A stretch of 53,872 bases of DNA, the filler included, from Jimgerdemannia flammicorona (Eukaryota): NCBI GenBank assembly GCA_003990765.1. It is 2 parts of 2 records of this genome, joined end to end, with 100 filler letters (N's around TTAATTAATTAA, not from the genome) between each part and the next. Parts side by side here need not be neighbours in the genome. Positions count along the whole stretch, not along the records: positions 1 to 26,893 come from RBNJ01000684.1; 1 more part is not named here. The stretch is one strand, 5' to 3'. Position 1 is the first letter of the stretch; every line of letters begins with the position of its first letter. The notes under the pieces were generated by a model. It ran no database searches. It was not told where the DNA came from and was given only the letters and a program-made list of their open reading frames with translations. The position numbers and the translations under genes were made by a program. Positions 5,845 to 42,795 of this stretch are shown piece by piece.

Positions 5845-6040
5845 AAAAAACACCCACACCCACATGCAACCCACCTGCACACAACCTGTCTGCATACAAC
5901 ACGCCTGCATACAACCTGCCTGCATGCAACCTGCCCACAACCTGCCCGCACACAACCTGCCCGCAACCCGCCCACATGCAACCTGCCCGCATGCAACCCA
6001 CCTGCACACAACCCATCTGCATGCAACCCATCTGCATACT
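5845..6040. repeat. Minisatellite of ~(CATGCAACC(C/T)GCC) units, probably intronic in the cargo gene
   Basis: Visible 14-19-nt imperfect tandem units, immediately followed by CAG acceptor candidates at 6046-6048 and 6054-6056. Confidence 0.75.
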
Positions 6041-6048
6041 TATCTCAG

Positions 6049-7287: not shown

Positions 7288-7594
7288 GGGTTAGGCAATC
7301 TTTCACAAGGGTTAGGCAATCTTTCGTGAGGGTTAGGCAGCCATTTTGTGTGGATTGAGCAGTCTTATATAGGGGGGGTTGGGCCAGGCACCTCTTATAT
7401 AGCACTAGCTTAGCCATTATGCAGAGCCCTACCAGCTCCTCAGCTCTGCTCTATAGTGCTGCTGGTGCAGTACTGCGGCATAGGATCAGGGTGTCCATGG
7501 GACCTGAACTGGTGACTTCGACTACTGGAAACACCCTCTGACCACCAGAAGCACCCTCTGACTGCCAGAAGCACCCTCCGCCCCAGACTCCTTG

Positions 7595-8070
7595 GTGGCT
7601 TGGGGCTGCCCCTATGCTGCTGGCAGAGGGCTGCAAATTTTGCGCACTCCCTCCACCTACCTTGCCCATCCTGGACACTTGTGGCTTGGGGCTGCCTCTT
7701 GCTGCTAGCAGAGGGCTGCAAATTTTGTATGCTCCCTCCGCCAACCCTGTGCCCACCAACCTGCCAACCGACCCCACCCACTGACCTGGACACTGACAGC
7801 TTGGGGCTGTCCCTTGCTGCTGGTGGAGGGCCGCAAATTTTGCATGCTCCCTCCGCCTACCCCCCCGACCTGGACACTTGCAGCTTAGGGCTGCCTCTTG
7901 CTGCTGGCAGAGGGCCGCAAATTTTGCACACTCCCTCCACTGACCCACTGACCTGTCCACCGACCCACCCACTGACCTGCCCACCAACCTGGGTACTGGC
8001 AGCTTGGGGCTGCCTCTTGCTGCTGGCTGAGGGTTGCAAATATTGTATGCTCCCTCTGCCACCACCGCCA
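7595..8070. repeat. Tandem repeat, ~5 units of ~85-120 bp, inside hAT-1
   Basis: Core GCTTGGGGCTGCCTCTTGCTGCTGGCAGAGGGCTGCAAATTTTG recurs at ~7598, 7684, 7799, 7883 and 8002. Confidence 0.85.
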
Positions 8071-8211
8071 ACCCCACCCCACTTGGGCCACAAATACCAG
8101 GCCAAGTCCTCAGGTTTTTTTTTTCCTTTTTTATTATTTTGAAAGGTATTAATTTGAAAGGTATTAAATATTCCACAAGGCCAACCAACTTATCCATGGA
8201 CCTGCTGAATT

Positions 8212-10762
8212 TTAGCAGCCCAAGCCCCACCAAGACTTCAGACACATATATCCCAGATTGTCTCAGCATTCAGTGTACACCTCTTTGAGGCAACGAGGTC
8301 CACTCCACCTGAGAACACCCACTCAACGGGAGCGCTGGAGGCAGGAATTGCCAGATAGTCCCAAGCCATACTACACAGGCTGGAGAAGTCCATTTGATGC
8401 AGCTGCATGCCCCAGTGGGTAGAGTGGTGGTTAGATTGGTGGGTTAAATTGGCCCAATGCTCGCCTGACAATGCCCACCTGACAACCCACCTTCTACCAG
8501 TTGAGCACCTCTGCACCCTCCAGCAGGACCATGCAGTCACTGGTGAGGTAAATTGTAAAGTTCATCTATTGATGGCAGCTCTTCCACTGACAGCTCCCTC
8601 TTCCTCTTTCTGCTGAAGTAAATGTGGAACAGGAGGGATCCCTTGGCATATTTGTCTGGACTTTGGCCAGAACCTTGCGGTGGTGCATAGTTTTTTTAGT
8701 ATACTTCGATTATGGCCTGCTTGGTTCTCTCAATGAAGTGCTGCTCCCAGCCCTGAACTTTATGGTATTGTAGCTTTAAGCATGGATCCAGCACTGTTCG
8801 AAGAGAAGGAGAGTGAGTTTTGCAGGATTTCTTCTGTTTTGGAAGAGGCAACGGCCACATGCCAACATTGACATACCTGTACTGATTGAGTATATGGCAG
8901 TATCTATTTGGGAGTAGTACTTTCTGAGCTTGCTTAGAGCAATCTCCACAGCATCTCTCTGATCTGGACTTAACCATAAATCACTACAACCCTCCAGCCT
9001 GTCCTCGAGCTTGTCCTCTAGCCAGTCAATCAGAAGGTTGTATACTGGTATCACAGAGCTTATTGTTGGGGTCATTTGTTTGACTATATCCTTCATACAA
9101 TCATTGAAATACTGGCAGTTATATGTGGTGAGGTGTTGCATTGTGTGGAGGCAGACAAAATGAGTGTGGAGCCAGAGCAACCACCACTTACTTCCAAAAC
9201 TCTGACAACATTCCTAAGTATGTCCCACTCACTTTCACCTAGAGCCTTGGCCCATATTTCCTTGTCAGCAGCCATCATTGAATCTATTGGCTTTTTTTTT
9301 TTAAATAAATCTTCCATTATCTGAAACAGTTGCTTCAGCCGACTGAAGAAAAAAAGAATGCATACTACAGCAAACTCCAGTGCATGCTGGATCATTGCAA
9401 ATGTTGAGTTCCAATGCATACAGACATCCAATATAAGCTCTTTCGGGGCTAAACTGATTGCTCTACACTGCACAGTGAATTTATCTCGTCATTGTGAGAC
9501 AATCAGACTGACACAACCAGTTTGCGCAGCTTGGAAATTATACTCAGGGCCCCTCCTCTCTCAGATGTTTTGTCTATGTATGTAAGATAGTCCTGATCAG
9601 TACATGGGCCTGGCATCGCACACAGTAGCTTTCTACACTGAAGGCCATGTTTTCCTGTTTGAGGCTGGCCGCTAAAACTTGGAAAAATGTTGAGTTGTTT
9701 GTGGCATTGTTCATCATAATGGCCAAAATCTATACTTGAAATATTCAGTTAGCAAATTATGTGAAAATAAATAACCAACAAAATCTGTTTTGTTTAAGGA
9801 CCTCTCTCAAAATGCCGACCTGATGGCAAGTCCCCCTTTTTTTACCTTAGTTGTGATCCCAAGCTCCCGGATATAACTAATAAAAGCATCTGCGATGTTG
9901 TCTCCAGAATGAGGGCCAGCAAGTTTGATGAAGTCAAGGGTGAGAGATTTAAGCTGCCAATCAAGGTCAATCCAATGACCGGTAATGTCCAGAAATGAAA
10001 TTGCATTGGGGGATGTCCATGTGTCGATTGTAAACAAAATTTTGCCTGCCAAATTCTGCTTATTGAATGTAAGGTTAAATTGGTGAGCTCTTTTATATAA
10101 TTCAGCTTGCAAAGGTCACAGTGCTGCCCTTATTTTACCTGAAGTATCTGGCAGAGATTGTTGTGCTCCTTCCTATAGGCCTCCAGGACATCTTTGCGAA
10201 TAGTATCAGCACTTGGCAAATATAAATCATGCTTGAGGAGACCAAAGATGCTATGCAATTGATCACTCTTGATGGTTGTGAATGGCTGGTCTGTACACAC
10301 AATCCAGTGAATGAGCTGATTTCAAAATTCTGCCGAAGAGTATGGCTAAATATTTTTGATTAAACAGTATTATTGGTACAGAAATGGTTGGGCAATCGGA
10401 GAAACATACCCACCACAGCTTGGATGTCGATTTTATTTGTCTCTGTATTCTTTTTGATTTTGTCAGAGTGCATGTCTTTTATGTATCAATTCATGTTCGA
10501 GGTCATACCACCAAGCATTTTGAACTTCTGGCTGGTGCAGTTTATGGGAGTGGATGAAACAATATCATATGTGTGTCAAATAAGTCAATAGGTGCATCTT
10601 AATTTTTAACCTGCAATAATTACAAACAACATCATCTCCTATCTTAGCACAATGTTGCCAGATTTCAGAGTGAGGATTGCATGGAAGGTGTGGAACTATC
10701 AGGGATGTTTGACTTGAAGCATCATTGGTACTGTGAACTGTTGAAGACTGATCTGTCGACAT
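8212..10762 (-). pseudogene. hAT transposase with BED zinc finger, multi-intron, disrupted
   Basis: SEIWQH...VVCNYC (BED), FTIDTWTSPN...ITGHWID...LDFIKLAGPHSGDNIA, ELILDVCMHWNSTFAMI, VLDPCLKL, DYLAIPASSAPVEWVFS (hAT dimerisation domain). Confidence 0.9.
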
Positions 10763-11770
10763 ATGTGTTTACATGTTTGCATGTGCATGTGTATGCATGT
10801 GTGTATATTGTGTGTGTATTGTATTGTGGACACATCCGGCATATGAGTCATGTGGAGGATTTGGATTGGAGGATTCAGTTGAAGGATTCAGATGAGGATT
10901 CGGATTGAAGGTTTCAAATTGGAGGATTTGAATTGGAGGATTTGAATTGGAGAATTCGGATTGAGTGATTCAGATTGAGTGATTTGGATTGAGTGATTTG
11001 GATTGAGTGATTCAGATTGAGTAATTCAGATTGGGGTGGTTCAGATGGGTGATTTGGATGGGGTGATTCAGATGGGGCAATTCAGATTAATCCAAGTTGA
11101 TTTGGATGGCTTCAGATTTGAGATTCGGATCGAACCATCATGTGACAAATCAAATCCAGATTTGATTCGAATTGACTCGTTCAGAGCACTAGGCCCAAGC
11201 ATCCAGGTTAGACCTCCCCAAGACCCCACATTTGTTCTCTATTTTGTAGAAGAGAACCTCATAGACTGGAGAGCTCCAGATCTCCTTGTCCTCACTGCCA
11301 CCACTGAATATAATAACATCATCAGCAATGATGTCATCCTGTGTGACATACATGAGATGTATGATGAGCATGGAATATGCAAAGCATGTGAAGTATGCAA
11401 AATGCATGACCTACATGATGATGATGACAAATTTGTAGATCTCATCTCCTTCGAAGACATCCTGATCTCTATGATAAAGCCTCTATGGTCCTAAACATTC
11501 TGCTCTAAGTCCCTTGGTTACACTGGATAATACCAGCACTGGTATTCTGAGGTAATACTGAATAATGCCAGCACTGGCATTCTGAGATAACACTGAATAA
11601 TATCAGCACTGATATTTTGATGTGACACCAAATTATACCAGCATTCTGAACCTATACAACCATCAGTGCCAACCCTGGAACTTAGCAGTTTTTCCTGTTC
11701 TGGCATTTTATTTTAGTTATTGGAATTTATATTTAGCTTTATATCTTAGCAACCATTGAATTATATTTTG

Positions 11771-11808
11771 TATAAATACTCCTCTTATTTTCTCTGAAAT
11801 AAAGTCAG
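11771..11808 (+). promoter_or_regulatory. LTR TATA box and poly(A) signal (5' LTR)
   Basis: TATAAATA at 11771-11778 and AATAAA at 11798-11803, followed by GTCAGT. Same layout in the 3' LTR (24968, 24995) and the solo LTR (42090, 42116). Confidence 0.6.
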
Positions 11809-12009
11809 TTAAGTTCACTTACACACAATCTCTTGCAAGCAATCTAAAAGATAACAAGATAGTTAAAGATAAGAAGTTTGAGGACTATAAGACCTTAGGA
11901 AGGCACTCCAATAAGAACTTGCTTATAACAAACTTGAGTTAGTCTAAGAGATATACCTTGAAGAGAATCTGACATATTTGAAAGACTCAGTGACCACTAT
12001 GTGACAACT

Positions 12010-12027
12010 TGGTGCCCATTGGCTGGT
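12010..12027 (+). other. Primer-binding site (tRNA identity not determined)
   Basis: TGGTGCCCATTGGCTGGT begins 3 nt after the 5' LTR; TGG is complementary to the tRNA CCA end. Confidence 0.7.
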
Positions 12028-12062
12028 GATTCAAGACGAATCTCTCACTTTCAAGCTGAAAA

Positions 12063-13982
12063 ATGAACAACCCCCACAACAACTACCCTGACTACAAGAG
12101 TCACCCCTGCAAGTATTCAAAACATGATAGAAATGCATCCCCCCACATTCTATGGATATACTACTGAAGAGTCAATCCTGATCTTCATTGAAGACTTTGA
12201 ACAGTTTGCTGCCATATGAGCCCTTAGTGTGGATGCACAATTAGCCCTTCTACCAGTCAGTCTCAGAGGACCTGCTAGGGACAAGTTCAATGCAGCCACT
12301 ATTGCTAATAATAGTGCAGCCAAACTTGCCAACATGAAGGCCTTCCTCAGAACAACATATTATACTGAAGAGATCAAGTAAGCTCTCAAGGATCAACTCA
12401 ATACTATCTGCCAGAGACTTAGTAAAGATCCCAACTCATTCTATACCTGAATATGCCACCAGATTTTCTTGACTGGCTATGATGACCACCTTAAGGAACA
12501 AATAGCAGAGTCAACCTTCCTCAAAGAAGTTCACCCTGAAATTGCCCTAGCAATTGGTCTACCCCAGCTGCACTGACTCTTAATCAGAAAGTGGTCTTTA
12601 TATAGAGATATTGGACTGCCAGATACCCTGCCAAACACTTAATAGAGAAAATAACTGGTATCAAGATAGAGCCATCGAAGCCAACTAGTATCATACCTGT
12701 CACAGTTGTAAACAGACAACCAACCCCACCTATCACTAAGACAGCCAAAGCTGACCCAGTGGAAGAACTTGCCAAGCAGTTTACTGAGATGACTGTACAC
12801 CTTGGTAATGTTGTTAGAGAAGTCTGAAGTGCTAACAGGAGATTTGCAGCTGCTATAGAAGAATGCAATATTACATACTTCAGATGTGGAGAAGAAGGCC
12901 ACTATACAAAGAATTACATGATTTAAACAAGACATAAAGCCCAACCAAGCAATGCTAGCAGAACTAGAGAACAAACCAATACAGTAGTCATCAAGGAGAT
13001 TGGTGACACTGATGATGAAGAATACTATGAGGAGCTCAAATTCTACCCTGCTACTGAAGGTACCAGAACTCAGTCCAAGCTCTATGACAAGAAGAGCAAC
13101 AGCAAGCCAGTTGGAAGACCAAAGAAGACCCCAGCTGTTACTATTCAAAGCAAGACCCAACCCAAGGAGATTGATCAAGATATGGAGTTAGATGAAGCTG
13201 CCTGCCAAATTATTAAAGGCACTACTCCAGTCTCAGGAGAAAGCAAGAGCAAGAAGAAACAGAAGCTGTGCAAGACAAAGATCCACCAGTATGATATCTA
13301 TAAGGACCTCAAAGAACAGAAGGTCAATGCTACTTTTGAATAACTAGCTGAAGTCCCTGCCTTCAGACAACAGTTGAGAGTAGGACTTGCAACTACTGCC
13401 AAGAATCAAGAGTACAAGATTGTAGAAGCTCACAATACACAGGAAGAATCTGAAAACTCAGGTGAAGAATTCAAAGATCAGCACAAGACATCAGCCTATA
13501 CTCTATGTCAGATCAAAGACTGTATCTTTGATGTCATCATTGATACTGATGCTGGAGGATACCTCATGAGCAAGAAGGCAATTGACCACCTAGGTTGGAA
13601 TATTGAAGAGTCCACCAAGATGGTCTATGTTATAGCAGATGGTATATAAGCTATCCCCCTTGGCAAAATCCAAAAAGTCTCCATCAAGATAGGAGGAGCT
13701 ACCATCCCAGTAGATGTGATTGTTACAAGTGCCACCAACTATAACATCCTCATTGGCAACCAATGGCTTCACAAGGCCAAGGCCATTATTGATCTCAATA
13801 CTCAGAAGATGCAGATCAACTATAGAGGAAGAAAGGTACAAGTCTCTATCAATGTCCACAAAGGAGTTCTATCAGACATAGAGGAAGGAGATGAAGAGAA
13901 CACAGAGGTCTTCATGCACTCAGTAAACAAGAACAAGAACAAGACACCCAAGCTCACAGATGAGCAGTGGTACAACAAGATC
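12063..13982 (+). pseudogene. Gypsy gag and aspartic protease (degenerate)
   Basis: ATG at 12063. Decayed zinc knuckle (Y)FRCGEEGHYTKN(Y) at ~12876-12918. Protease motif VIIDTDAG at ~13533-13556 and ILIGNQWL. Confidence 0.8.
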
Positions 13983-16900
13983 ATCATCTGCCACCTTTCT
14001 CTGGTACAATTCACATTATACCAACTTCAAGCAACAGTTTTTCAACACAACTCAGAGGAAAGATATTATAACAATATCATTGAGCAAGAGTTCTGCTGGA
14101 TGTGCTGGGTCAGGTGGACCTGGGGCTTTCGGCTAGCAGTATGTAGAGAGGAGTTATGGCCTGGGGATGGGGCCTTTGGAGGGTCAAAGGGTGGCAGGGG
14201 CTCTGGAGGTAGACCAGTATCTGGTAGCCATGGAGAGAGGCCTGGCCCCCCAAGTTTTGTGGATAAGGTAAAGGGGAGTGGGTGGCTGGCTGGGACTGGG
14301 GCTGGTGCTGTGGTAGGGAAGGGCAAGGTGAGCCTAGGGAGGGGGGGAGTTACTCAGGGGGGGAATGCAAGCATAGGTGCTGGAGGTGTAGTGGCTGGGG
14401 ATGGGACTGCTGATAGCAGTGTGATAGGCAATCAAGAAAAAAAAAGAGATATGACAGCTGATGGCAGTGTGGGGCAGGGGTTCCTGATGTAGAAGGGGGA
14501 CCTGACTGATAGTATGATAGGGCTGGTGGTGGCACCATTACTCAGGAAGTCAATCTTGGAGTTTGTGGTGACACTGTGCTTCCAAGGCTTGACAGTAACA
14601 GTGAGAATGGTCTTGGGGCTTGTCTTGAAGCAGGTGGCTGGGGCAGCCTTGGTGAAGTTCCTAAAGGGCCTGAAGGGAGTCGAGGTGGGCTTTGAGGAGG
14701 CAGGCCTACTGGAAGAGGCACTGAAGTCTGGAGTGGTAGTTGGCGAGGTGGTAGTTCCCATGATGTGCTGCCTGAGGTGGGACCCCAGGATGGTACAGCT
14801 GCTGGTGAAGGGGATGCCTACTGTGATGAAGGAGGAGACTAGGAGGAGGGTGGAGGAGGTGATGGCAGAGTATGGTGATGTGGTGGATATCAGTTTCCAG
14901 GTATGGGAGGGGACCTCTATTAGGACTAATGATGTGGAGGTGAGAATTAGACTGGCAGGAAGGGAAGCCACAGAGAAGACAAGTGACTGGCTCTCAGTGT
15001 TGATGTGGGGGGCTTTTGTCTGTAAGGTGATAAGGGTGTGGGGGAATGAAGAGGAGGAAGAGGACTTGTTGGAGGTGCTAGAAGAGTTGAGTGATACTGT
15101 TAAGAGGAGGGTAAAGGCCTGGAAGTTGTATGAGGAGTCGACGCATCTGGAGATTGTTGATGGGAAAAGGATTTGAACTGACAAGGGGCAGTGGGAGCAG
15201 GCCCAGAAGCACAAGTGGCAGAGAGAGTTGTTGGCGAGTATGAGTAGTGGGGCTAAGAAGAAGGCAGATGGGACTGAGGTGTCTGGGGGCATCAAAGCCA
15301 GTGTCTGGACTAGTAAAGGAGAAGGGGTGGTGGAGGCAGGCAAGGAAGGAGCTGGGAAGGTACTGAGTAAGGACCCCTATACCAACAGCACATTTGAGGT
15401 CTGGGAGCAGGAATTGGATACTACCCCCCTCTCTCTTATCAGAAGGGGCCCAGCTGTGAAGAGAGGGACAATAGAGAATATACTGATGCAGGGGGCCCAG
15501 TGAGTACACTTTGGGGTCCCTGATGTGGTGAAAGGGGGCCAGGTGGTGGCAGTTGGCAAGGATGAGCTGGTGGATGTCCCTGAGGAGAAGTGGGATGAGG
15601 CTGCCAGTGTAGGAGCTGATACTATAATGTTGGATACAGGGTGGCCAGAGACTCCAGGAGGAAAGGAGGTGGGGAACTTGTTGTGGATGAGCAAGGTAAT
15701 GGATAACCTTGCGGCAGAGGCATTGGGAGAAGTGGATCTGTGGGTAATGTCTGAGGAGTATTGGGTGCAGATTCTGCATGGCAATGGAGTGGTGGAGGCA
15801 CTGAAGGTGGAGATTCTTGCAATCTTCCTGAAGGAGGAGGGATATGAGGTTGATGAGGTGAGGAAGACAGAGCTGGTGGTGGTTGCTAGTGAATGGGCAG
15901 CCTACTGTTGGGCAGAGCATCATGGTTTGCAGCTCTGGCAGAAGGCCTGTCTGGAGTATTATGAGGACTTTGAGGAGCAAGAAGATGGGGTGATGGTAGA
16001 ACTTCTGGGAGGGTTGGAGGCATGGGAAGCTGGAGAAAGGGAACTAGCTACTGAACATGACTTGGACTTGGTGTAGGAGGAGCTGAATGTGGACTTGTAG
16101 AGGATGAGATCACTATATATCATTTTTTCTTATGAACAATACAACCAACATTTTCTCTTTGAATGTGAATGGGTTAAGGGGATCTGGGCAGCATAAGAAT
16201 ATTTTTACTTAGCTCAAGGGATTGGAGGCTGATCTCTTTTTACTATAGGATGTTCGGTGTGAGGATGAGGATGATCGGGTGGAGTGGACTAGGGAATGGG
16301 GTGGGGCTACTGCTTGGTTTGGAAAAGTAGTGATTCTGGTGAGGAAGGGTAGAGGAGACTTGGGGGGAATCAGGAGCTGGAGTGATCACTTGGTCTGGGG
16401 AGATTGGCATCAGCCAGGGTGGGAGTCAGTGAGGGTTGGCTCTTGCTACTACTCTGCAGTTAGGGGTGAGAGGACTGCATGGATTAAGGAGCTGCTGGAG
16501 GAGGGTATTCTCTTAGAGAAAGGGGTCGATGTTCTCAGTGGGGACTTTAATATGGTTTGGGATCAGCATCTAGACAGAACTGATGGAGAGAGGAGTGCAG
16601 GGGGGAGAAGTGGAGGTCTGGATGCATGGGAGGAGGTGGAGAAGTTGAGCTCCTTAGGGGATATGGGCAGAACATGGTGGGGCAACACCAGGGTCTACAC
16701 ACATTGGGTGAATGGCTTGGGCACAAGGATTGACTGGATTCTGATGGCAGAGTGCTGGGGTTCAGATGTTTGGAAGATGGTAGAGATGGAGTGGTGCCCA
16801 TGGTCTGATCACCTGAGACTGTTGGGGCAGGGGCAGTTTGGGGGGAGTGGAGATGGACCCAGACATTGGCACCTTAACTCCTCCCTGCTGGCTGAGAAGA

Positions 16901-19889
16901 GGTTGTGGGACTCATGGGTGGAGGACATTCAGGCAAAGGTTTTTATCTGGAGGCATGAGGGTTTGTCTGTGGGTGTCTATTGGATGAGATTGAAAGAGGT
17001 TGTGAGGATCTATTGGGGAGGGGCTAGTAGGGAAGCTGGGAGATGGAGGAGGAAGCACACAGGGTGTGCTTCCAGCAGACTGAGGAGACTGCAAATAGAT
17101 TGGGTGGATTTGCTTACTTCTGATGGGGTGGAGGATTGGAGGATAGAGCAGGCAAAATTGGAGATAGTGGAACTGCAACAGGTATTGAGAGAAGAGGAGG
17201 AGACTCATATGTGAGGTATGGCTGCTAGGCTATGGTGGCAGGGGCTTGAGGAGGGTGAGCAGCCTACTAGGTACTTATCAAGACTCCTCAAAGCTAGGAG
17301 GGTGCGACATCAGTAGAATGGGGTCCTGGATGCCAATGGGAATATGGTGCATGGCATACAACAAATATTAGGGGTTTTGAAGGAGAAATGGCAGGGTTTA
17401 TAGAGTGAGGGAGAAGGGGGTGCTGATGAGGCAGTGATTGCAGATATACTAGAGGAGTGGGGGCTGCTGCAAGTAGCTGGACTGAGTGACTTGATCTTAC
17501 TGGTACAAGGAGAGGAGATCCAGAGTGTCCTTGTGGCAACTAAACTTGGAACAGTGCCAGGGGAGGATGGGTTACTGTGGGACTTCTGGAAGAAGATGGT
17601 AAAGGTCCCCGGAGTTTTGGGTGAGATGGCTGCTCTCTGTTACCATGTTCTTCAGAGTGGTGAGTGGGTTGGAGAGCAGGACCTCAGGCTGGTGGCCTTA
17701 TTGTACAAAGACAAGGGGAGGAGAGAAGACTGGAAGAACTGGAGACTGATCATGCTTCTGGATATGGACAGGAAGATGGTGACTAAGGTGATTGTTGCAA
17801 GGCTGCAGAAAGTTGCCCAACAGGTGCTGAGGGAGGAGTAGTGGGGCTTTGTTGGGAGCAGACTTATAAGGGATGGGACTGCATGGGTGCATGGTTTCAT
17901 TGAAGGGGCCTGGGCTTGTGGACTGGATGGCAGGTTGGTCTTTTTGGACTAGGAGAAGGCCTATGACCATGTATGGTAGGTTTGGCTGGGCAAGGTGTTG
18001 GATCGAATTGGTATTCCCTTGAGATTTCAGACTTCTATGTTGAATCTGCTAGAGAGCAGTCAGGCAGCGCTGATGTGTAATGCTCACTGAGGTCTGGCAT
18101 TTTCCTTAGAAAGAGGAGTTCCTCAGGGGGACCCTCTGTTCTCTATTCTCTATGCCCTTTTGTTAGAGCTGTTGATGGATCAGATTTGCTAGAAGGTGGC
18201 AGGGCTCTCTATATATGGTATAGTGTAGAAGATGGGGGCCTTTGCTGATAACATAGTGGTTGGACTTGGGTCTGTAGCAGATGTCAAGGCACTTAAGGAG
18301 ACAGTGGAATGGTATGAGGCTCACTCTAGGGCAAAGCTCAACTGGCATAAGTGTGAGACAATAGTGCCAGGAAATGGGCTAGTAGATGGAGACATCATTG
18401 GAACAATTGTCTCTACTGGTTAGGTGGTGAGGTATCTGAGCATCTTCCTTTCTATATATGGTTCTGTCTTGCCACAAGTGTGGTGGGAGAGCAGGGTGAC
18501 CATTTGGTGGGAGGCCCTTCAAGGTTGGGGAGGCCGCCATATCTCTCTGGCAGGGCAGGTGTCAATTCTGAATGTATACTGGTTCCCCAAGCTGTGGTAT
18601 GTGGCCTATCACCTAGACTTCTCAGCTTGGGTGGTGAAGAGACTGACAAAGGTGGCTAGAGATTGAATTTGGGCAGAGAGAAGGTCCCAGATCAGTTGGG
18701 ATACTCTTGCAACACCAGTGGTCAGAGGAGGTCTTGGCCTTGTGGATTTCCCTAAGAGATTGCACTGCTTGCAAGCCTGATGGTTGAAGAGAGCTACTGA
18801 ACTGCAGAGAGGGGGTTGGGTGCCTCTGCTGCAGAAGGTGTGGAAGATGAGAACCTCCCCTCAAGGGTCCTCAGGAGATCTGCTCTCTTTGATAGGGCTG
18901 AATGGAAATCGGCAGCTGTGGTTTAAGGGCTTTTGGTAGAGGGTGGTAGATGGAGCACACTGAATTGGCCTGTGCTGGCAAGGCAATGAGGGAGAGGTGA
19001 TATAGGGGCCTGATATGTGGTGATGGGATAGACTGCTCCTGGGGGGTGCTCCACTTGCTACATTTGGTTTTGGGGATGGAGTGGAGTGTCAGCAGGGTCT
19101 TGGCCAGAATATTTGGCTAAGTGGCTGGCAGATGGCAGAGATCAGTGAGGAGTGGGACTGGGCAGGTATCTGGTCTTGAAGTGCTGAGGTACAGAGGTGG
19201 CTTTCTCTCAAGTTCTGGGTGATATAGTGGTGAATGCTGCAGAGGAATATCATGTTGAATTTCTGCACTGGGTATCTGGTGAATGGTGGCCGTTTCGATT
19301 GTGAGGAGTGTTACAATATAGGGCAAGCTGGGGGTCCTGTGCAGATGCCAGAACATTGGTTGGGAGAGTGTGAGGTTTTGGAGAACTTTTGGGTAGAAAT
19401 AGGGAATTGACTGAGTGTAGAGCAAAGGCCAGCAGGTGAGGGAGGCTGCTGGGAGGACTTGAGATCTTGGCTAATGGGTGGGATAGGTGATAGTTGGCTC
19501 ACTGTAGGGTGGGTGTTAGCAGTGTAGGTGGGACTGGCAGGACATTGGCTTTTTGTATTTGAGGAGGGGTGGTAGATGGGGCTGCAGAAGAAGGTATTAA
19601 GGTGGGAGGAGCTGTTGGGGGATCTGCTGACTGGATGGTGGGTGGGTTGGGGTCCTCAGGGGGGGGCAACATCATAGTTTGGTGGTAAGGATCTGTGAGC
19701 AGAGTAGTGGGAGGGTAGAGATTGTATTAGACAAAGTGGTCTTTCATCGAGAAGGGGTAGGAGGGGGAGGCCCCCCTAGGGGGATCAGATAGGGGGCAGG
19801 ATCACTATATTTATATGGGATAGATGGGCATAATAAAGGAAGGAAGTCCAAGTGACTATAAAAAAAAAATAAAAAAAAAAAAAAAAAAA

Positions 19890-19930
<41 letters not shown>
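13983..19930 (+). mobile_element. L1/Tx1-like non-LTR retrotransposon (LINE copy 1), full length, degenerate
   Basis: 16-bp TSD GTGGTACAACAAGATC (13967-13982, 19931-19946) and a ~70-nt A tail. ORF1 ~14074-16100. ORF2 from ATG 16132 has APE motifs (SLNVNG, GDFN, SDH, WHLNSSLL) and RT motifs (PGEDG, EKAYD, QGD, FADN, YL). Confidence 0.95.
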
Positions 19931-19932
<2 letters not shown>

Positions 19933-20171
19933 GGTACAACAAGATCGTTAATGGCTATGCCCCTCAAGAAAGATGCCCCCATGGTACTAGGATGTACTGC
20001 TCTGAACACCTGAATGACTGCTGGTCCTATATCAGTGAAGTTAGGAAAATCTGCCAATAGAAACATGAGCAAGAAGCCACTGAAGCAAAAAGGAAAGCCA
20101 AAGAAGATGACCAGCCCCCAGAGCTTCAAGCTGACAGTGATGATGAGGAGGAACAAGAACCAGATATCACC

Positions 20172-20582
20172 CTCAAAGTTAAGAAGTTTCACCCCAAGGC
20201 CAAGATCCCAGAATACAGGACTGAAAGAGCTATAGGAATAGACCTTGCCAGCATTCAAGATGCTATCCTTGAACCATAGACCACCACCCTACTTGTCACT
20301 GGAATTGAAGTCAAGCTGCCAGAAAACTATGCCAAAATTATCAAGACCAGGAGCAGTCTGGCCAAAAGCAAAATCTCAGTTGAAGGAGGAGTAATTGACC
20401 CTGATTACACTGGCGAGATCTTCCTCATAGTCAGGAATCACAACCCCACTACCCCATTTGAAGTCAAGAAGCATGATAGGATTGGCCAGATGCTGATCCA
20501 TGAAATCAAGAAGTCCAAGATCATAGAAGCCATCAAACTCATCAAGACTAAGAGAGGAGAACAAGACTTTGGATCTACTGGA
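20172..20582 (+). pseudogene. dut: dUTPase domain of Gypsy pol
   Basis: All five trimeric dUTPase motifs in one frame: AIGIDL, RSSLA, GVIDPDYTGEI, DRIGQ, RGEQDFGSTG. One TAG at 20277-20279. Confidence 0.9.
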
Positions 20583-20699
20583 AGAGGAGCTTATGCTACT
20601 ACCAAGATTACCAAACTTGAGCACAAGAAAGACAAGGACCAGAATAAGCACACATATACCATTGGAGAAAACTTTCCCCTAGAAGAACAACTTCTCAAG

Positions 20700-23288
20700 A
20701 TCCTGCACTAGAATGAAGGAGTACTTACTACAGACTTCAGGGATATCCACAATCAAGAACCCAAGTACTACCATGAAGTTGACACTGGTGATACCAAGCC
20801 CATCTACCAGAAAGCCAGACCCATACCACCTGCCTATAGAGAATGGCTGTGAGCAGAACTCAAGGAAATGGAAGAAGCTGGAATCATCAAGCAAGCCATC
20901 AGCCCCTGGGCCTCACTCATTGTCCTTGCTCTGAAGAAAGGAAGCAAGCCTGGAGAGTTTGCACCAAGACTCTGCATTGACTACAGAAAGCTCAATGCAA
21001 TCACAAAGAAGGATAGGCAGCCCTTGCCAAATATTCAAGAAATCCTTACCACCTTTAGAAGCAAAGCCAAATACTACACTACCTTGGTTCTGTTCTCAGG
21101 CTTCCATCAGATTGGTCTCACTCAAGATGCCAGTGAGAAATCAGCCTTCATTACACCTGATACCACCTATATCTACCTGCAAATACATTTGGAATGTGCA
21201 ATGCCCTAGCAAGTTTTCAGCAAATGATGAATAGAGTCTTCAGCAACACTATACAGGAACATGTCAATCATATACAGCTAGCTCTCAAGAAGCTCAAGGA
21301 GCATGGCCTCTATATCAAGCCTAAGAAATGCAAGTTTGCAGCTCAGGAAATCACCTACCTAGGACACCTCATCAACCAGACCAGAATCCACACAGATCCT
21401 ATGAAGATTGAGGCTGTTGCAGCCTACCCGAGACCCAGAACAACCACAGAAGTCCATGCCTTCCTTGGACTGGTCAGCTACTACAGAAGATTCATCAAAG
21501 GATACTCCAACATTGCAGTACCTATCTATGAGCTACTGAAGAAGGAAACCAAATTCAAATGGACCAAGGAGTACCAAGAAACCTTCAATGAACTCAAGAC
21601 CAGGTTGACCCAAGCACCTATCCTCAGAAGACTAGATTGGAACCTAGAATTCATCCTGCAGACAGATGCAAGTATCATAGGACTTGGAGCAGTCCTAGCT
21701 CAGAAGAAAGATGGATATGAATATGTCATCTCTTATGCAAGCCAAGGTACCTGCAGAGCAGAACAGAACTATGAGTTATACAAGCTCGAATGCTTAATAG
21801 TAGTTTGAGCAGTAGACAAGTTCCACTACTATCTAGCTGGGAAATACTTCACCATTCAAACAGACCATTCTGCTCTTGCCTGGCTATTCCACACTCTGAA
21901 CCCCAAAGGAATATATGCCAGATGGATCTACAGGCTGCAAGAGTATGACTGTACTATCAAGCACCACTCAGAAAGAACCAATACCAATGCTGATGCACTC
22001 TCAAGGACATCCCAAAATACTCCCATCAAGACTATTCAATATGAATAAGGAGCTATACTATGGATTAATCAGCTATCTTGGGCAGCAGAAGATGCCCAAC
22101 CATCTTAAATCCTGGACAATCACTATCATCAACTGGACTTGAAAACAGTTTGAACTAGACAACACTACACTCAAAAAAGGAGAAAAGCTAGTAATACCCA
22201 AATACAAGAAGTATCAAATAATGAAGGAAGTATATGAGCAAGGATACCTAGGAGGAACCAATACATATGATAAGGTAAGAAGAACCATATGGTGACCCAA
22301 GATGGAAGAAGATCTGTGCCAATTTGTCAAAGGGTGTGACAAGTGCCAAAAACAGAAACAAGATCAGCAAGACCAGGCACCCAGGTTATCAAGAATTGAG
22401 GCTATCCCCTTCCACCACATTGCAATGGATATCATTGGGCCACTACCAGTAACATTATCCGAAAACCACTATATTATAGTTATTGTAGACCTCTTCACCA
22501 AATAGATAGAGGCAGGAGCATTACAAGAAGCCAATGCCCTCTCTATAGCCGACTTCCTGCACTGAGAAATCATCTACCACTACAAGACACTGAAACAAAT
22601 CACAACAGACTGTGGCACAGAATTTGTCAATGGATTCTATGAGATAATGTATCAGAAATACAAGATCCAGTATATCAAGACTACTGCATACCACCCTCAA
22701 AGAAATGGACAAATAGAGAGAACCAATAAGACCCTTAAGAACATTCTGGCAAATATCTCAGAGACATATGAGAATTGGGATAACTATCTCCCAACTGCCC
22801 TCTCTGTCCTATGAGATATATGGTCACAGAGTACACACTTTATCTCAAGGGAACTGCTCTTCAGAGAAGAAGATTCTGATGGAACCTCAGCCACAAATCT
22901 AGACCTAACTTGGAGACAGGTTGATGCAGAAATCCAGAGGCTACACCAAATCAGAAAGAAGGCTGAAGATTACATTATCAAGTCACAAGTACTGACAAGA
23001 AAGAATGCAGAAAAGAATCACAAGACCCTAGAATCCATCCGAATCGGAGAGAAGGTCCTATTATATCAAAATATAGTAGAAGCCTCATAGTCATGAAAAC
23101 TGGAGCCCAAATGGGAAGGACCCTTCTATGTGCAAGATATCAAGGAAACTACCTTCTGGCTTAGAAAAATCTCAGAAACCATACTGCCTACCACAGTATA
23201 TAGGAACAGACTAAAGAAATACCATGAACCTATACAAGAGAAGCAAAATGTGATGACCACCCACAAAGTTCTAGTCTGCGAATCATAA
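20700..23288 (+). pseudogene. Gypsy RT - RNase H - integrase (degenerate)
   Basis: SPWAS, RLCIDYRKLN, KPKKCKF, YLGH, FLGLVSYYRRFI, LQTDAS..GLGAVL, TDHSAL, IAMDIIGPLP, TDCGTEF, YHPQ.NG..ER.N, KWEGPF. Confidence 0.92.
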
Positions 23289-23591
23289 CAGCATGTCCTA
23301 TGATCAGCAGGCTATCTGTCTAGACCATTCTCTAAGGGATACAGCACTAGCAACTACTCATCCATGAGACTTTCGAAGCCAGAGGAGTTTGAACTATCAT
23401 CTGATTGGTCAAGATCAGAATCAGGCCCTTGCTCTATATAAAGGGAGCAACCTTTCACCATTATGCCAAAATATAAAGAGAAGATGCCAGCCTATAAATA
23501 CCACTTTTTGACTCCTTGCCAGAGGTTATGGGATCAGCAAATTTTTCAGGACTGGACCAATGAATAAGGATACTTGAGAAGATTCTTATTC

Positions 23592-23601
23592 AGGAGGAAT
23601 A
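23592..23601 (+). other. Polypurine tract (decayed)
   Basis: AGGAGGAATA lies directly before the 3' LTR. Confidence 0.5.
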
Positions 23602-25214
23602 TGTAATGGTGACTTCAGAATGATGACATCAGCACAGGAGACAGTCTTTCCTTACAAGCTACCAGATCAGAGCACAAGAAGATCATATGGCATACAAGAT
23701 GAGCAATAATGACCAACTATGAGTCATTGTGACCACAGTACAAGTATCCTGAGGAATATAAAAGAAGGATTAAGGAACCACAGTAACAGCAACCAACAAG
23801 ACCCACCAATCCCAAAAATAGCTCAAAGACTCACTACAAACGAAATGCCTGCTGCCTGCCAAACCTCAAGATCAAGGAACCACTAAGGCATCTCAGTTAA
23901 AGAAAGGATATTCCAAGACATCAGAAGAGCCATGAGGATCTGCTCAAAAAGGACTCCTAGTATCAACCTGGGTACTGGTGACCCTTATCATTATATTCTC
24001 TACCACCATGAAATGGAAACAAGGATCACTATTGCTACCAAATGCCTCCAAATATGGCAGGAGTATGAAATAGAAAACCTCCTCTGCCAGAAGTTTCCAC
24101 AGGCCAGCCCTCAAGAACTACAAGATATTACTCCCATGGATATATATGAGGCAAGGACAGCTAAGAAGATCCATCAGATCTTCAGACATGTACTATGGTC
24201 GATCCCTAACTTGGAGTATGTTAGAGTCTCAGACTTCAGAGACCTATTATCTCACCATATCAATACACTAGAAGCCAGAGTGGCTACAGAAGCCCAGTCC
24301 ACTATCACTCTCAATAGTGATGAAGTAGAAGACTTCTGGCATTCTTTCCTCCAGGACAATCTAGACCAATTTCTACAAGGATTGATCTCAGTATTCTAAG
24401 GCCCAAGTATCTAGATTAGACCTCCCCAAGACCCCACATTTGTCCTCTATTTTGTGGAAGAGAACCTCATAGACTGGAGAGCTCCAGACCTCCTTGTTCC
24501 TGCCCCCACCACCACTGAACATGATGTCATCAGTGATAATGTCATCCCGCATGACATATGTGAGATGCATGATGAAGCATATGAAGTATGCGAAATATAC
24601 AACCTACATGACAATGATGACAACAAATTCATGGACCTTATCTCCTTTGAAGACATTCTGACCTCTGATGATGAAGCCCCTATGGTCTTGAACATTCTGC
24701 TCTAAGTCTCTTGGTTACACTGAAGAATACCATTACTGGTATTCTGAGGTGACACAGAATTGTTCCAGTACTGGTATTTTGGTGTAATACTGAATAATAC
24801 CAGCACCAGTATTCTGATGTGACACTGAATTATACCAGCATCCTGAACCTATACAACCATCAGTACCGACCCTGAAACTTAACAGTTTTTTCTGTCCTGG
24901 CATTTTATTTTAGTTATTGAAATTTATATTTAGCTTTATAACTTAGCAACCATTGAATTATATTTTGTATAAATACCCCTCTTATTTCCTCTAAAATAAA
25001 GTCAGTCCATTCAGTCTACTCAGTGCAATACACACTTCCTTGCAAGTAATCTAAGAGATAACAAGACAGTTTAAAGATAAGAAGTTTGAAGACTATAAGA
25101 CCTTGGGAAGGCACTCTAATAAGAACTTGCTTATAACAAACTTGAGTTAGTCTAAGAGATATACCTTGAAGAGAATCTGGTGTATTTGAAGGACTCAGTG
25201 ACCACTATGTAACA
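23602..25214 (+). repeat. 3' LTR (1613 bp)
   Basis: TG...CA termini; collinear with the split 5' LTR. Confidence 0.95.
23845..24705 (+). pseudogene. LTR (U3)-encoded ORF of unknown function, ~286 codons
   Basis: One frame from ATG 23845 to TAA 24705 with three internal stops. Two of them (23884, 24412) are CAA/CAG in the 5' LTR copy. Homologous to the ORF in the solo LTR at 40955-41838. Confidence 0.7.
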
Positions 25215-25631
25215 ATATTTTTATACTAATTTTAGTAAAACTACTAGAGGTTAAAGGATAGATACCAGGTCTTTGAAGTATTAGTATAATTTTTAATATT
25301 CTTAAAAATATAGAACTTTGAGAAATTACTAGTTTAGATAGAGTTGAATGAGTAGAACTTTAATAGAAAATTAAACAATGTAGTTCTTAAGTTTTTGTAT
25401 AAGTTTATCAAAGTTCTAGGCAAAGTTATCAGTATTGTCTACTTGGTCAGACTGGACCAGATCTCTTAGTAGTATATCTGCTACTTTATTTGATATATTC
25501 ATAAGATATAAACTTAGTAATCAGACTAGTAGTAGAGGGTTCTATATATGTAGTACTGGCTTCTGAGACTTTCTGATAATGGGTAATCAGTAAGTTTAGA
25601 GGTAATAATATCTCTCAATGGTTTGGTAGGC

Positions 25632-29267: not shown

Positions 29268-29345
<78 letters not shown>

Positions 29346-40748: not shown

Positions 40749-42795
40749 TGTGACGTACACAATTGACAATAGAGTACCGGTGACTGCTAAGATCAGACGA
40801 CATAATGGCATAACAATCGAATAGACAGCCTGACCCATTAGGTGATCACCCCAAAAAGAGCAATGATAATCTGAGCCAAAAGGAAGACTACATTATTTAA
40901 AGAACCATACTCCGCCTCAGGAATCAGCACTAAAGAACAAGTACCCACCACACAATGCCTCCTATCTGCCACCCTAACCAGACCTCCCGCCGCTCTTCCC
41001 CTTGCCTGGCCCAAAGACTCTAATCCTTAAAGCTATCAAAAAGGCTATTTGGCACCCAGACACCTCTGAACATCTGAACTTCTACACTGAGGATCTTGGA
41101 CACTTCATTAATTACTGGTACATAATGACCCAACAGCTCAAAGATACCACTGAACAAATGACCCTCTGGCATGATTATGAAATTGGACACTGCCTTCGTA
41201 ATGAAACCCAAGAAGGCAACCAGGAAGACCTCATTGCCGAAATGTTAACCACTAGCCGGCTAATTAAGAGAGCCCTCCATGTCCACCAAATCTTCCACCA
41301 TATTCCCTAGACTATAGCACACTTATAAGGAGTGACTACTGGAAGTCTTGCCCATCTCTCAACTGAAGATACAGACTGGATAGAATCAGAAGTAGCTGAC
41401 TCTATTGGTAGTAACTGGGTCGCTGTAGGAAGCCAACAAACCAAGCCCACTCAACCAGGCTTTCACACCACTCCACTCTGAGACAACCATCAAGGTCACC
41501 TAATGAGTTTCATGGAAATCTTCGAAGGACCACCCATTACCATTACAACACCTGTTGGAGCAATCCCAACTACTCACCACTCTGTCAGCTACAATTCGCA
41601 CCTCATCATTTGGGAACCAAATCAAGAAGTCCCAAAAGTCCCTACCAATATGGAAACTGAAGGATCTGAGGAAGAAGAAGAGGAGGAACAAAGAATCTAC
41701 CAATCCTCTGTCCACCTTCAAGCAGTCCAAGGGTTGGAGAATGTCATCGAAGATGATTGGCCACAATTCTACCCCCTCACCTCCTGGCCGGTGCTCTCAC
41801 CCTTTGAAGAACAGGATGAAGAAGTCACAACCCAGTAAGATGATTGGATCACTGATGAAGGGTACTTTACCATTCAGTGATCCAATGTCTGTTTCCTCAG
41901 TCCGGTCAGCCAACGTTTGTCAGCAAGTCAGCAACATCTGTTTTCAGTGATACTACCCACAATATCTATATCCAGCACTAGTACTCATCTTATCTCAATT
42001 CAGTGCAAACAATTATTACACCCATATTCAGCAATTAAACCACCACAATGTAGTATACCTTAGCCTCCCCTCCATAGCTAGCAAATTTGTATAAATAACC
42101 CTATATTTTAGAGTGAATAAACCTCAGTCAGTTTGTGTTTAAAGTAAAAAGGATTACAGAGAAACCTCACTGCCTTCAAGAGACCAGATAAATTCTGAGA
42201 ACAAGATAACTAGAGCAACGATCGCTTGAGGTTTGAGTTAAAGAATTTTCTCTTGCCATGGAAAATGTTCAAGATTTGCCACTAAGGAAAGCCACACGAA
42301 AAGCTGTTCAGTTCAGTTTAAAGACCCGCCACTAAAGGAAAGCTGTACAAAAAACCACCAACCACTGCTGAGATCCCACCAGTCCAACTGTCGTGTATTC
42401 GACCCGACTGCCATGCATTCAGAACCAACTGCCATTCAAGGTTCAAGACCGCACATTCGAGACCTGCCATTCAAGTATTAAGACCCCAGCCAAGGAACCC
42501 AAGGATACTTAGCTTAGGAAAGCCAGTACCGTCATCATTCACCTAATAAGTCAGATGGATGAGTTCCTCTTTTACCCACTGTGCCATGAACGTGTACATT
42601 CAAGAAGTAATTCACCACTAGAAAAATTCATCAACCACTAAACAACTGAGCCTCTACTGTATGAATCGGATAAACCGATCATGTGACCATTGACCTGCAA
42701 CTGTCGCAAACATACTCAGTCATATACCATATGCTCTACCAAGTAGTATATTGAGCTGTGGGTGAAGCAACTAGAGATACAAACTGTATGTCACA
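40749..42795 (+). mobile_element. Solo LTR (2047 bp) of a second LTR-retrotransposon family
   Basis: Termini TGTGACGTACA...TGTATGTCACA. TSD ATAT (40745-40748, 42796-42799). TATA/AATAAA/TCAGTC block at 42090-42130. Confidence 0.88.
40955..41838 (+). pseudogene. LTR-encoded ORF, homologous to 23845-24705
   Basis: ATG 40955 with a 1-nt frameshift in a C run near 41000. Then one frame covers ORFs 41002-41310 and 41503-41838, with three internal stops. Confidence 0.65.

Follow-up and report, generated by a model that had tools for sequence, protein, structure and literature searches.

A probable accessory gene lying wholly within the long terminal repeats of a dUTPase-bearing Ty3/gypsy retrotransposon lineage in Jimgerdemannia flammicorona

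The open reading frame (ORF) identified here within long terminal repeats (LTRs) of Jimgerdemannia flammicorona is probably (at roughly 70% by our estimate) a real accessory gene of a dUTPase-bearing Ty3/gypsy retrotransposon lineage, contained in its entirety within the LTR. As a consequence of this location the ORF is duplicated at both ends of the element and survives in solo LTRs, while the presence of intact relatives in metagenome data indicates that it belongs to a real gene family. LTR retrotransposons are usually seen as gag-pol elements, the LTRs of which are purely regulatory DNA; accessory genes in or overlapping U3, such as sag, nef and bet, are held to be a retroviral specialisation of complex retroviruses, and other examples of a gene placed inside an LTR come mostly from a handful of retroviruses. 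A conserved gene at this position alters annotation, as LTR libraries are normally not screened for genes, and also alters the view of solo LTRs, which would then be coding units even after deletion of the element, and the comparison with complex retroviruses.

The window, by which we mean the whole 53,872-nucleotide stretch of DNA that was analysed, carries one element with two LTRs and one solo LTR of a second family. The 3′ LTR of the former (23602..25214, plus strand) begins with TGTAATGG, ends with TGTAACA and is followed by ATAT at 25215-25218, matching the ATAT at 3975-3978 just before the 5′ LTR, although this 4-bp duplication is of low complexity and weak on its own. The 5′ LTR, also on the plus strand, is in two parts, 3979..4787 and 11192..12006, owing to the insertion of a hAT-type DNA transposon (4788..11191, minus strand), which is itself outside the gene and which was recognised by its inverted termini, an 8-bp target duplication (GGCCCAAG, at 4780-4787 and 11192-11199) and a minus-strand match to Pfam Dimer_Tnp_hAT (E 2.7e-5). 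Self-blastn matched 3975-4789 to 23599-24409 at 89.6% identity and 11191-12007 to 24399-25215 at 84.9%, the LTR pair being about 88% identical. The internal region (12007..23601, plus strand) encodes a gag with a decayed zinc knuckle, followed by a protease (13650-14489, Pfam RVP_2), a dUTPase (20280-20708, Pfam), a reverse transcriptase and RNase H (20853-21950, Pfam RVT_1 and RT_RNaseH_2) and an integrase (about 22195-22700, Pfam Integrase_H2C2 and rve), all on the plus strand, and it also harbours a nested LINE (14249-19796). With PR-RT-RNase H-IN in this order on a single strand and an LTR at either end, the element has the layout of Ty3/gypsy (Metaviridae) elements, and it also has their terminal features, namely direct repeats with TG...CA ends, a primer-binding-site-like TGGTGCCCATTGG starting at 12010, 3 nt past the 5′ LTR, and a purine-rich tract, AGGAGGAATA, directly 5′ of the 3′ LTR. 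Soil-metagenome contigs cross the border between the internal region and the LTR, bridging pol into the LTR, and at 10 loose contig ends, in four of four runs, the LTR end continues into the primer-binding-site sequence; as only contigs were placed, differences in bin depth between LTR and internal region, and a near-empty bin at 24491-24607, were not counted as evidence. The solo LTR (40749..42795, plus strand, TGTGAC...GTCACA) is flanked by ATAT on each side, and self-blastn found no DNA similar to it elsewhere in the window.

A preliminary description of this DNA had assigned a frame of about 290 codons to each of the two LTR families, and its coordinates and quoted peptides proved correct. 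The copy in the 3′ LTR, here called copy A (23845..24705, plus strand, within 23602-25214), comprises 286 codons plus stop, reads in frame +1 from 23845 with the start MPAACQTSR and terminates at TAA 24703-24705, while copy B in the solo LTR (40955..41838, plus strand) yields the peptides MPPICHPNQTSR from 40955 and KTLILKAIKK from 41014; the two ORFs start 243 nt and 206 nt, respectively, into their LTRs. The positions and the homology of the two frames stand, but neither is open in the window. Copy A is interrupted by three in-frame stops (23884, 24397 and 24412), leaving a longest ATG-to-stop ORF of 155 aa, and copy B by three stops (41308, 41326 and 41479) as well as by a frameshift near 41003 between its MPPICH start at 40955 and the remainder, which is in frame at 41014-41835. 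Across 100% of its length copy A is 66% identical to an intact relative of 271 aa (P0002), and copy B, across 99% of its length, is 68% identical to one of 325 aa (P0006). A third copy is present on the plus strand of the 5′ LTR and is more damaged than A and B, being broken by indels and split by the hAT insertion: its N-terminal two thirds (4222..4788) match P0002 residues 1-188 at 57% identity (tblastn, E 1.6e-60), and a C-terminal piece at 11192-11470, carried by the second part of the LTR, matches residues 186-257. All three copies in the window are dead. When the proteins of three intact relatives were used in tblastn against the 53.9-kb window, these three LTR copies were the only matches obtained.

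The absence of obvious DNA identity between the two LTRs was confirmed by blastn (word size 7), which returned a single 24-nt match (E=0.025) in the TATA region, with all remaining matches at E>=1.2. The conceptual proteins of A and B do align, as had been proposed, and they do so significantly: the local alignment score of 140 (BLOSUM62) was reached by none of 1000 shuffles (mean 35.9, sd 5.8, maximum 67), corresponding to z=18. This similarity is specific to the proposed frame, in which A and B score 140 as against no more than 58 in the other five frames; the corresponding values for comparison with a third family, L001, are 427 against at most 222 for A and 224 against at most 149 for B. 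Stops are likewise rarest in the sense frame, with 0-3 as compared to 6-29 in the other frames.

Four intact relatives were found in metagenome data, namely P0002 (271 aa), P0006 (325 aa), the L001 ORF (291 aa) and P0010 (342 aa), and these span at least three mutually divergent families which have the start motif and the ends in common; the protein database holds predicted open frames only, so that the intactness of the relatives is in part an ascertainment effect. When 1.84 billion representatives were searched with a profile, 13 clusters came up at E<=1e-3, one of which is a spurious ankyrin protein, and a homologue search with a 17-sequence profile returned three proteins, none of them new. 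The search for related loci yielded one locus out of 203 pattern matches in metagenome contigs and none out of 43 in viral contigs. The LTR context is established for families A and B, and no LTR end was seen in the 1535 nt of L001.

That conservation of the protein implies selection, as the preliminary description argued, is supported by the four intact relatives, by conservation in one frame and by the saturation of synonymous (pS 0.70-0.77) as opposed to non-synonymous differences (pN 0.38-0.53) between families. The resulting between-family pN/pS ratios of 0.50-0.73 are by themselves no proof of selection, since the LTR pair of a single element, expected to be neutral, already gives 0.44 with the same simple estimator owing to the dominance of transitions (105 of the 115 ORF differences), and Nei-Gojobori pN/pS was on these grounds rejected as a clean test of selection. 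Codon-position identities were taken from nucleotide-guided alignments, protein-guided ones being biased by the alignment method; the third codon position was the least conserved, significantly so in the pairs A-L001 (p=0.002) and B-L001 (p=0.013) and not significantly in A-B (p=0.29). Between the 5′ and 3′ LTRs of the Gypsy element 189 of 1598 aligned sites differ, 168 by transitions, and where the window differs from other copies it mostly has T or A where the others have C or G. The CpG observed/expected ratio in the window is 0.04-0.20 in transposons versus 1.13 in the BTB gene, and the window copies have been worn down by the C-to-T/G-to-A decay which has stripped CpG from all transposons here. 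The named Atlas clusters closest to the neighbouring BTB/SPRY protein are those of Nematoda (0.96), Haptophyta (0.95) and Mucoromycota (0.94).

The protein begins with a short basic N-terminus (MPxxR...), continues with a compact domain of seven helices and about 150 residues, and ends in a disordered, strongly acidic tail containing the hydrophobic-acidic motifs DLISFED and FEDLIIFEDL and a conserved C-terminal P-x-V/I-L-N-F-L. The acidic C-termini noted in the preliminary description are seen in the intact relatives, in which the tails carry a net charge of -14 to -26 and the N-termini one of +1 to +8. Structure prediction with AlphaFold gave a confident all-alpha model of the domain (pLDDT 90.4, pTM 0.84) from an input of 15 sequences. 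In keeping with the suggestion that the accessory protein had not been described, the intact L001 ORF matched no Pfam family at E<=1 and the 17 members shared no consistent one, the matches of the window ORFs and of these members (ATG5_HBR, COA8 and similar) being sub-threshold noise, and extra ORFs found in the literature on LTR retrotransposons are placed in internal regions only, none of them inside an LTR. A sequence-profile search of PDB gave no matches at E<=10, neither the full nor the domain model had a Foldseek match in PDB at E<=0.001, BFVD was equally negative at this cutoff, and the ESM Atlas gave no usable match (best feature score 0.83, with a pLDDT of 0.35 for the Atlas's own model). 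With VIA-align the best Z of the full model was 3.8. Among the best 31 rows for the domain model, eight are ParB/SopB/VirB/KorB/Spo0J DNA-binding domains on the same 80 residues, and further helix-turn-helix (HTH) regulators are among the rows listed. The ParB-family chains align on model residues of about 57-142, and SopB-DNA, at Z 4.2 with an rmsd of 4.3 over 77 residues, is below the noise bar of the tool, as are VirB (3.7), P1 ParB (3.3), Spo0J (2.9), KorB (2.9/2.8) and ParB (2.7). These HTH domains are the nearest structural neighbours of the domain model, with Z of at most 4.2, but there is no Pfam match, no PDB profile match and no significant hhalign match to F-plasmid SopB (probability 0.13%, E 0.43), and on present evidence the protein is not a member of the ParB/KorB-type HTH group.

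Two sets of promoter-like motifs bear on where in the LTR the ORF lies. Downstream of the ORF, TATAAATA (24968), AATAAA (24995-25000) and TCAGTC (25002-25007) make up a module at 24968..25007 on the plus strand of LTR A, and the equivalent module in LTR B (42090..42129, plus strand) has TATAAATA at 42090, AATAAA at 42116-42121 and TCAGTC at 42124-42129; the modules start 263 nt (A) and 252 nt (B) past the stop codon, and the TATA-to-A spacing is 36 nt in both. This module is where the sole blastn match between the two LTRs falls. We read it as a core promoter and poly(A) signal that would mark the U3/R border, and on this reading the ORF would lie in U3. Upstream, a TATA-like box, TATAAAAG (23757..23764, plus strand), lies 88 nt 5′ of the copy A ATG, and similar boxes precede the ATG by 61 nt in B (40894) and by 80 nt in L001 (296). 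These are candidate promoters of the ORF itself, although they sit in A-rich sequence and could be due to chance. Their recurrence 61-88 nt before the ATG in all three families with DNA would also suit an arrangement in which the upstream box is the sole promoter of the element, TGTATAAATA...AATAAA is purely a polyadenylation signal, and the ORF lies in R as the first cistron of the genomic RNA, repeated at the 3′ end of that RNA; UGUA/UAUA-type elements 5′ of AAUAAA are known polyadenylation enhancers, which counts in its favour. We regard this arrangement as unlikely, as R would then reach about 1.2 kb with gag behind a 286-codon ORF, and as TATAAATA and TCAGTC recur at an identical 36-nt spacing, in the canonical layout of a TATA box plus initiator, in two families otherwise without common DNA.

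A close parallel in layout is sag of mouse mammary tumour virus (MMTV), an accessory ORF in U3 of a betaretrovirus LTR which lies upstream of the core promoter; each LTR accordingly has a copy, and the genomic RNA carries one at its 3′ end. As in MMTV, a complete ORF is found inside the LTR and in both LTRs, and it would lie 5′ of the core promoter suggested by the motifs, but here the host element is a Ty3/gypsy retrotransposon rather than a retrovirus, no Pfam family is matched, and the model shows an all-alpha domain, soluble in appearance and without a predicted membrane segment, together with an acidic tail. The comparison concerns layout only and does not imply superantigen biology; neither Pfam (E<=1, L001 ORF) nor the fold search against BFVD (E<=0.001) related the protein to Sag or to other accessory proteins of retroviruses. 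The retroviral transactivators Tas/Bel1 of foamy viruses and Tax of HTLV have acidic activation regions and boost their own LTR promoter, and the acidic, hydrophobic-studded tail would make the present protein a functional analogue of these at most, as no sequence or fold similarity to them was found (BFVD, E<=0.001). The additional ORFs (aORF, ORF3, env-like, ORF0) of Ty3/gypsy-type elements are likewise lineage-conserved and of obscure or regulatory function. In the portions of the literature available to us, their carriers include the plant elements Athila, Bagy2, Grande, Retand and Retrosat2 and the bdelloid elements Juno and Vesta, and the ORFs are internal, either in the stretch from pol to the 3′ LTR or ahead of gag (PMC7264820, PMC3485330, PMC5408684). 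The window ORF, unlike these as so described, starts inside the LTR, recurs in the 5′ LTR and has a counterpart in a solo LTR, so that it is neither internal nor single-copy per element. According to PMC5408684 the bdelloid elements have a dUTPase between PR and RT, as does the element in the window; dUTPase is not mentioned in PMC6338049. Three further papers were discarded as precedents for an LTR-borne gene: a Candida review, in which just the start codon of gag lies within the LTR (PMC4139406), and the crapaud paper (PMC10787394) and a choanoflagellate survey (PMC6875170), which concern other subject matter.

As to what the protein does, we tentatively propose, with clear reservations, a transactivator-like nuclear regulator that binds DNA and acts on the LTR promoter of its own element. 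Its message would start from the TATA-like box 61-88 nt 5′ of the ATG and end at the poly(A) signal of the LTR, or else the 3′ end of the genomic RNA would be the source of the protein. More speculative still is the fuller version of this proposal, according to which each LTR is a gene complete in itself, made up of a TATA box of its own, an ORF of 270-340 codons and the poly(A) signal of the LTR, and encodes a sequence-specific DNA-binding transactivator or anti-silencing factor of a previously unseen helical fold; were it true, solo LTRs would go on providing the factor in trans for all members of the family. The gene may have arisen from a 3′ extra ORF that joined U3 once the plus-strand priming site had shifted upstream of it.

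The same gene may instead do another job, its product being not a transcription factor but an adaptor whose short acidic motifs recruit a host factor; it might then serve to export unspliced genomic RNA from the nucleus, to shield the element from silencing or methylation, or to target integration. The conserved hydrophobic-acidic motifs of the disordered tail and its P-x-V/I-L-N-F-L resemble short linear interaction motifs, the resemblance to DNA-binding domains is sub-threshold, and counter-defence would pay in a host that clearly attacks its transposons, as the CpG ratios given above show. An accessory protein for RNA export can moreover be encoded by Ty3/gypsy-type elements (PMC10309623); CERV of C. 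elegans Cer1 is reported to act in nuclear export of unspliced genomic RNA. No feature of the protein singles out RNA binding or a named host partner, however, and the sole recurring structural theme, though weak, is that of HTH DNA-binding domains, so that this role too must be considered doubtful. It is very improbable that the ORF is a captured fragment of a host gene, carried as a neutral passenger without function for the element. LTR retrotransposons do take up host sequence, according to the part of PMC7264820 available to us, and the protein is without a recognisable retroelement domain, but the same source gives captured genes as present in one or few copies, whereas here at least three families, saturated at synonymous sites and each with intact members, have kept the frame, the start motif and the domain order; no non-LTR copy was found in the window by tblastn with the proteins of the intact relatives. 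The reading furthest from an accessory gene, in which the frame is not a gene and its similarity reflects conserved cis-regulatory DNA or chance, could draw on the stops in both window copies and on the failure of Pfam to find anything, but it is refuted, as far as sequence data can refute it, by conservation in one of six frames, by the shuffling result, by four relatives open across 271-342 codons and by an AlphaFold pLDDT of 90 reached from only 15 sequences.

If the self-contained gene proposed above is real, it would be without precedent outside retroviruses as a regulatory gene carried by an LTR, and it would be abundant in soil eukaryotes. As an orphan family with a confidently predicted domain and abundance in soil metagenomes, it offers an accessible target for research on how transposons manage host silencing. 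Of the 12 sequencing-run matches listed, ten are to soil metagenomes and two to an organism, no run being listed as RNA and all 12 being DNA or of unspecified kind, and the family is abundant in soil metagenome assemblies, with thousands of contig pieces placed in one run.

The nested Ty3/gypsy element in the window, delimited by self-comparison and Pfam scans, has its 3′ LTR at 23602-25214 and its 5′ LTR in two pieces (3979-4787 and 11192-12006), between which lies a hAT-type DNA transposon of ~6.4 kb (4788-11191; Dimer_Tnp_hAT match on the minus strand) with inverted ends TAGTGCTCTGAACG... and an 8-bp target duplication, GGCCCAAG. The Gypsy LTRs have the ends TGTAATGG...TGTAACA with ATAT on both flanks, TGGTGCCCATTGG follows the 5′ LTR, and a purine tract lies before the 3′ LTR. 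Aligned over 1598 sites, the LTR pair shows 189 differences, 168 of them transitions. The internal region contains a decayed gag zinc knuckle, read from the sequence, and Pfam matches to protease, dUTPase, RT, RNase H and integrase, with a LINE of 5.5 kb (14249-19796) lodged between protease and dUTPase. A second LTR (40749-42795; ends TGTGAC...GTCACA, ATAT on either side) is unpaired within the window and is therefore a solo LTR.

The preliminary description held that the 3′ LTR and the solo LTR lack obvious DNA identity and that each nonetheless carries a ~290-codon frame whose products align. By blastn the two LTRs indeed share one 24-nt match (E 0.025), all else having E of at least 1.2, while tblastx recovers the proposed frames with a summed E of 8e-8. 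The peptides it cited are present in both LTRs where it had placed them, and the conceptual proteins score 140 in a local BLOSUM62 alignment as compared to 35.9±5.8 (maximum 67) for 1000 shuffles (z=18). Judged from the DNA of copy A (23845-24705, in the Gypsy 3′ LTR), copy B (in the solo LTR) and a related intact ORF on a metagenome locus, L001, conservation is specific to one frame: the sense frame scores 140 (A-B), 427 (A-L001) and 224 (B-L001), whichever of the five remaining frames does best reaches 58, 222 and 149, and stops number 0-3 in the sense frame as against 6-29 in the others. Both frames are interrupted in the window: copy A has in-frame stops at 23884, 24397 and 24412, and copy B at 41308, 41326 and 41479, with a frameshift separating its start codon (40955) from the remainder of the frame. 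The ORF copy in the 5′ LTR is more damaged than either, having indels and the hAT insertion point within it.

Intact relatives were obtained by searching 5.8 billion proteins with read-through translations of A and B (X for stops), which returned five relatives for A and three for B. One relative of A (P0002, 271 aa) shares with it the MPAA start and LNFLL end, at 66% identity over 100% of the query, and one of B (P0006) has 325 aa and 68% identity over 99%; L001 encodes a third, intact version of 291 codons, 43% identical to P0002. Among 1.84 billion representatives, 13 clusters matched the family profile at E<=1e-3, including a fourth intact form of 342 aa (P0010) and six distant fragments; one of the 13, an ankyrin protein, was dismissed as spurious. 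All family forms have an MP-x-x-R start, the motifs YEIGH and HQ(I/V)FRH(A/V)P, and F-x-GP-x-I followed by an acidic tail. As protein databases contain open frames only, the share of intact copies in this set of relatives is inflated. The tail segment between the I-x-W-R and DLISFED motifs (window 24491-24660) varies in length and sequence even among close family-A relatives, and in this segment indels of 15 and 3 nt set the 5′ LTR copy apart from the 3′ one.

With a probability of roughly 70%, an accessory gene lies inside the LTR, the LTR context being that of families A and B. Its start codon is 243 nt (A) and 206 nt (B) into the LTR, and within the window three intact proteins match by tblastn the three LTR copies only. 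Metagenome contigs span the pol/LTR border, for instance a 387-nt contig over 23397-23778, and ten contig loose ends, from all four runs, continue from 25215 into sequence found after the window's 5′ LTR. The sole DNA common to LTR families A and B is a module after the ORF, TTTGTATAAATA followed by AATAAA and TCAGTC (starts in A: 24968, 24995 and 25002; starts in B: 42090, 42116 and 42124), with 36 nt from TATA to A in both. From these motifs we infer a TATA box and initiator, transcription beginning shortly after the poly(A) hexamer, an arrangement that would place the ORF in U3 and leave R short. Another TATA-like box precedes the ATG by 88 nt (A), 61 nt (B) and 80 nt (L001), and the 15-20 nt preceding ATGCCT are alike in all three, which suggests that each LTR may hold a separate promoter for the ORF. 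Were that upstream box the only promoter, the ORF would lie in an R of 1.2 kb; given the shared downstream module, we consider this less likely than a U3 location. In L001, the 12-mer GTCAGGCGGAAC, followed each time by similar A-rich sequence, stands at 172-183 and 1478-1489, flanking the intact ORF; it may be a regulatory motif present twice, or else indicate that LTRs were assembled in tandem.

That protein-level conservation reflects selection on an accessory protein, as had been proposed, is supported in its core: one frame, start and domain order are kept, with intact members in each family. The strongest argument is this qualitative one, as the flanking LTR DNA is unalignable between families and yet these features persist. 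Between families pS is saturated (0.70-0.77) and pN is not (0.38-0.53), and pN/pS was not relied on since the two LTRs of the one Gypsy element, expected to be neutral, already give 0.44 owing to the dominance of transitions. In nucleotide-only alignments of A and L001, identities at codon positions 1, 2 and 3 are 178/272, 180/268 and 144/268, the third being least conserved (p=0.002); the same test gave p=0.013 for B-L001 and was not significant for A-B (p=0.29).

The product is an orphan protein, one domain of which is predicted with confidence. AlphaFold2, given the L001 ORF and an alignment of 17 sequences, reached pLDDT >90 for the greater part of residues 20-165 and modelled the tail as disordered, and the domain alone (residues 15-170) is modelled as seven helices with mean pLDDT 90.4 and pTM 0.84. 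Foldseek found no match in PDB or the viral-protein structure set BFVD at E<=0.001. Exhaustive structure comparison with VIA-align placed ParB-family DNA-binding domains on top, all at about model residues 57-142 and below the tool's noise bar: SopB-DNA at Z 4.2 (rmsd 4.3, 77 residues), VirB 3.7, P1 ParB 3.3, Spo0J 2.9, KorB 2.9 and 2.8, and ParB 2.7; sigma region 4, GerE/LuxR, DeoR and TetR-type regulators were also listed, likewise under that bar. Profile comparison with F SopB by hhalign was not significant (probability 0.13%), and the ParB-family resemblance is a lead and no classification. The C-termini are acidic, as first described, the tails of the four intact proteins having net charges of -14 to -26 and motifs such as DLISFED and FEDLIIFEDL, and the first 40 residues +1 to +8.

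A former 3′ ORF may have joined U3, probably via an upstream shift of the plus-strand priming site; as a part of U3, the gene would be copied to both LTRs every cycle. The protein would be nuclear, its helical domain binding DNA and its acidic tail recruiting host machinery, most likely so that the element's own core promoter is transcribed more strongly or escapes silencing. We regard this role of DNA-binding regulator as tentative, and about equally probable is an adaptor to host factors, acting in RNA export, anti-silencing or targeting.

The nearest known layout is MMTV sag, a retroviral ORF in U3, with no detectable likeness between the proteins. In earlier work (PMC7264820, PMC3485330, PMC5408684) extra ORFs of LTR retrotransposons sit in the internal region, whereas the window ORF starts inside the LTR. 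The dUTPase of the window Gypsy, in the PR-to-RT interval, has the same position as that described for bdelloid and basidiomycete elements in PMC5408684. Full-text searches of literature mostly outside subscription journals turned up no case of an LTR retrotransposon whose LTR holds an accessory ORF, in keeping with the initial view that such a protein was not recognised as described. On this reading, a Ty3/gypsy element carries within its LTR a retroelement accessory gene whose product is an orphan.

The window copies are old and decayed by transitions, and the gene is open elsewhere, as follows from CpG loss, contig differences and the stop positions. Contigs of four soil-metagenome runs were mapped on 21800-25300 at 80% likeness (3243, 329, 166 and 635 pieces), and most differences have T or A in the window and C or G in the others (198 of 312 places in run X1). 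For two of copy A's three stops, most mapped contigs have another letter at the position concerned, and all three are sense codons in every relative covering those columns. The window transposons have a CpG observed/expected of 0.04-0.20, as against 0.53 in the intact L001 ORF and 1.13 in the neighbouring BTB/SPRY gene, and the contrast between gene and transposons suggests that in the host the cytosines of transposons are targeted for methylation or deamination; such depletion beside an undepleted gene, together with a dUTPase-bearing Gypsy, would fit a fungal host. Of 12 sequencing runs that contain parts of the stretch, 10 bear the label soil metagenome and 2 that of a coded organism. The BTB/SPRY frame (121-1407, minus strand) is open over 429 codons and has a second copy 2.3 kb away (2428-3652, 77-81% identical), and the nearest named clusters to its protein are nematode, haptophyte and Mucoromycota.

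The LINE of ~5.5 kb, with Exo_endo_phos and RVT_1, occurs in three diverged copies (14249-19796, 31273-36783 and 44250-49795; 70-84% identical) with extreme plus-strand GC skew, about +0.36 to +0.48, and AT skew nearly nil. Immediately upstream of LINE copies is another repeat family (28920-30442, 43707-44242 and 52793-53829; 72-78% identical), which may be a LINE 5′ region or a separate element. Immediately downstream of the Gypsy 3′ LTR lies a tandem array of 9-nt period (25526-26656). On either strand it can be read in more than one frame over long open stretches, which span as many as 376 codons between stops and are rich in Pro, Leu, His, Ala and Cys; after the array come two runs of 44 N (26894-26937 and 26950-26993).
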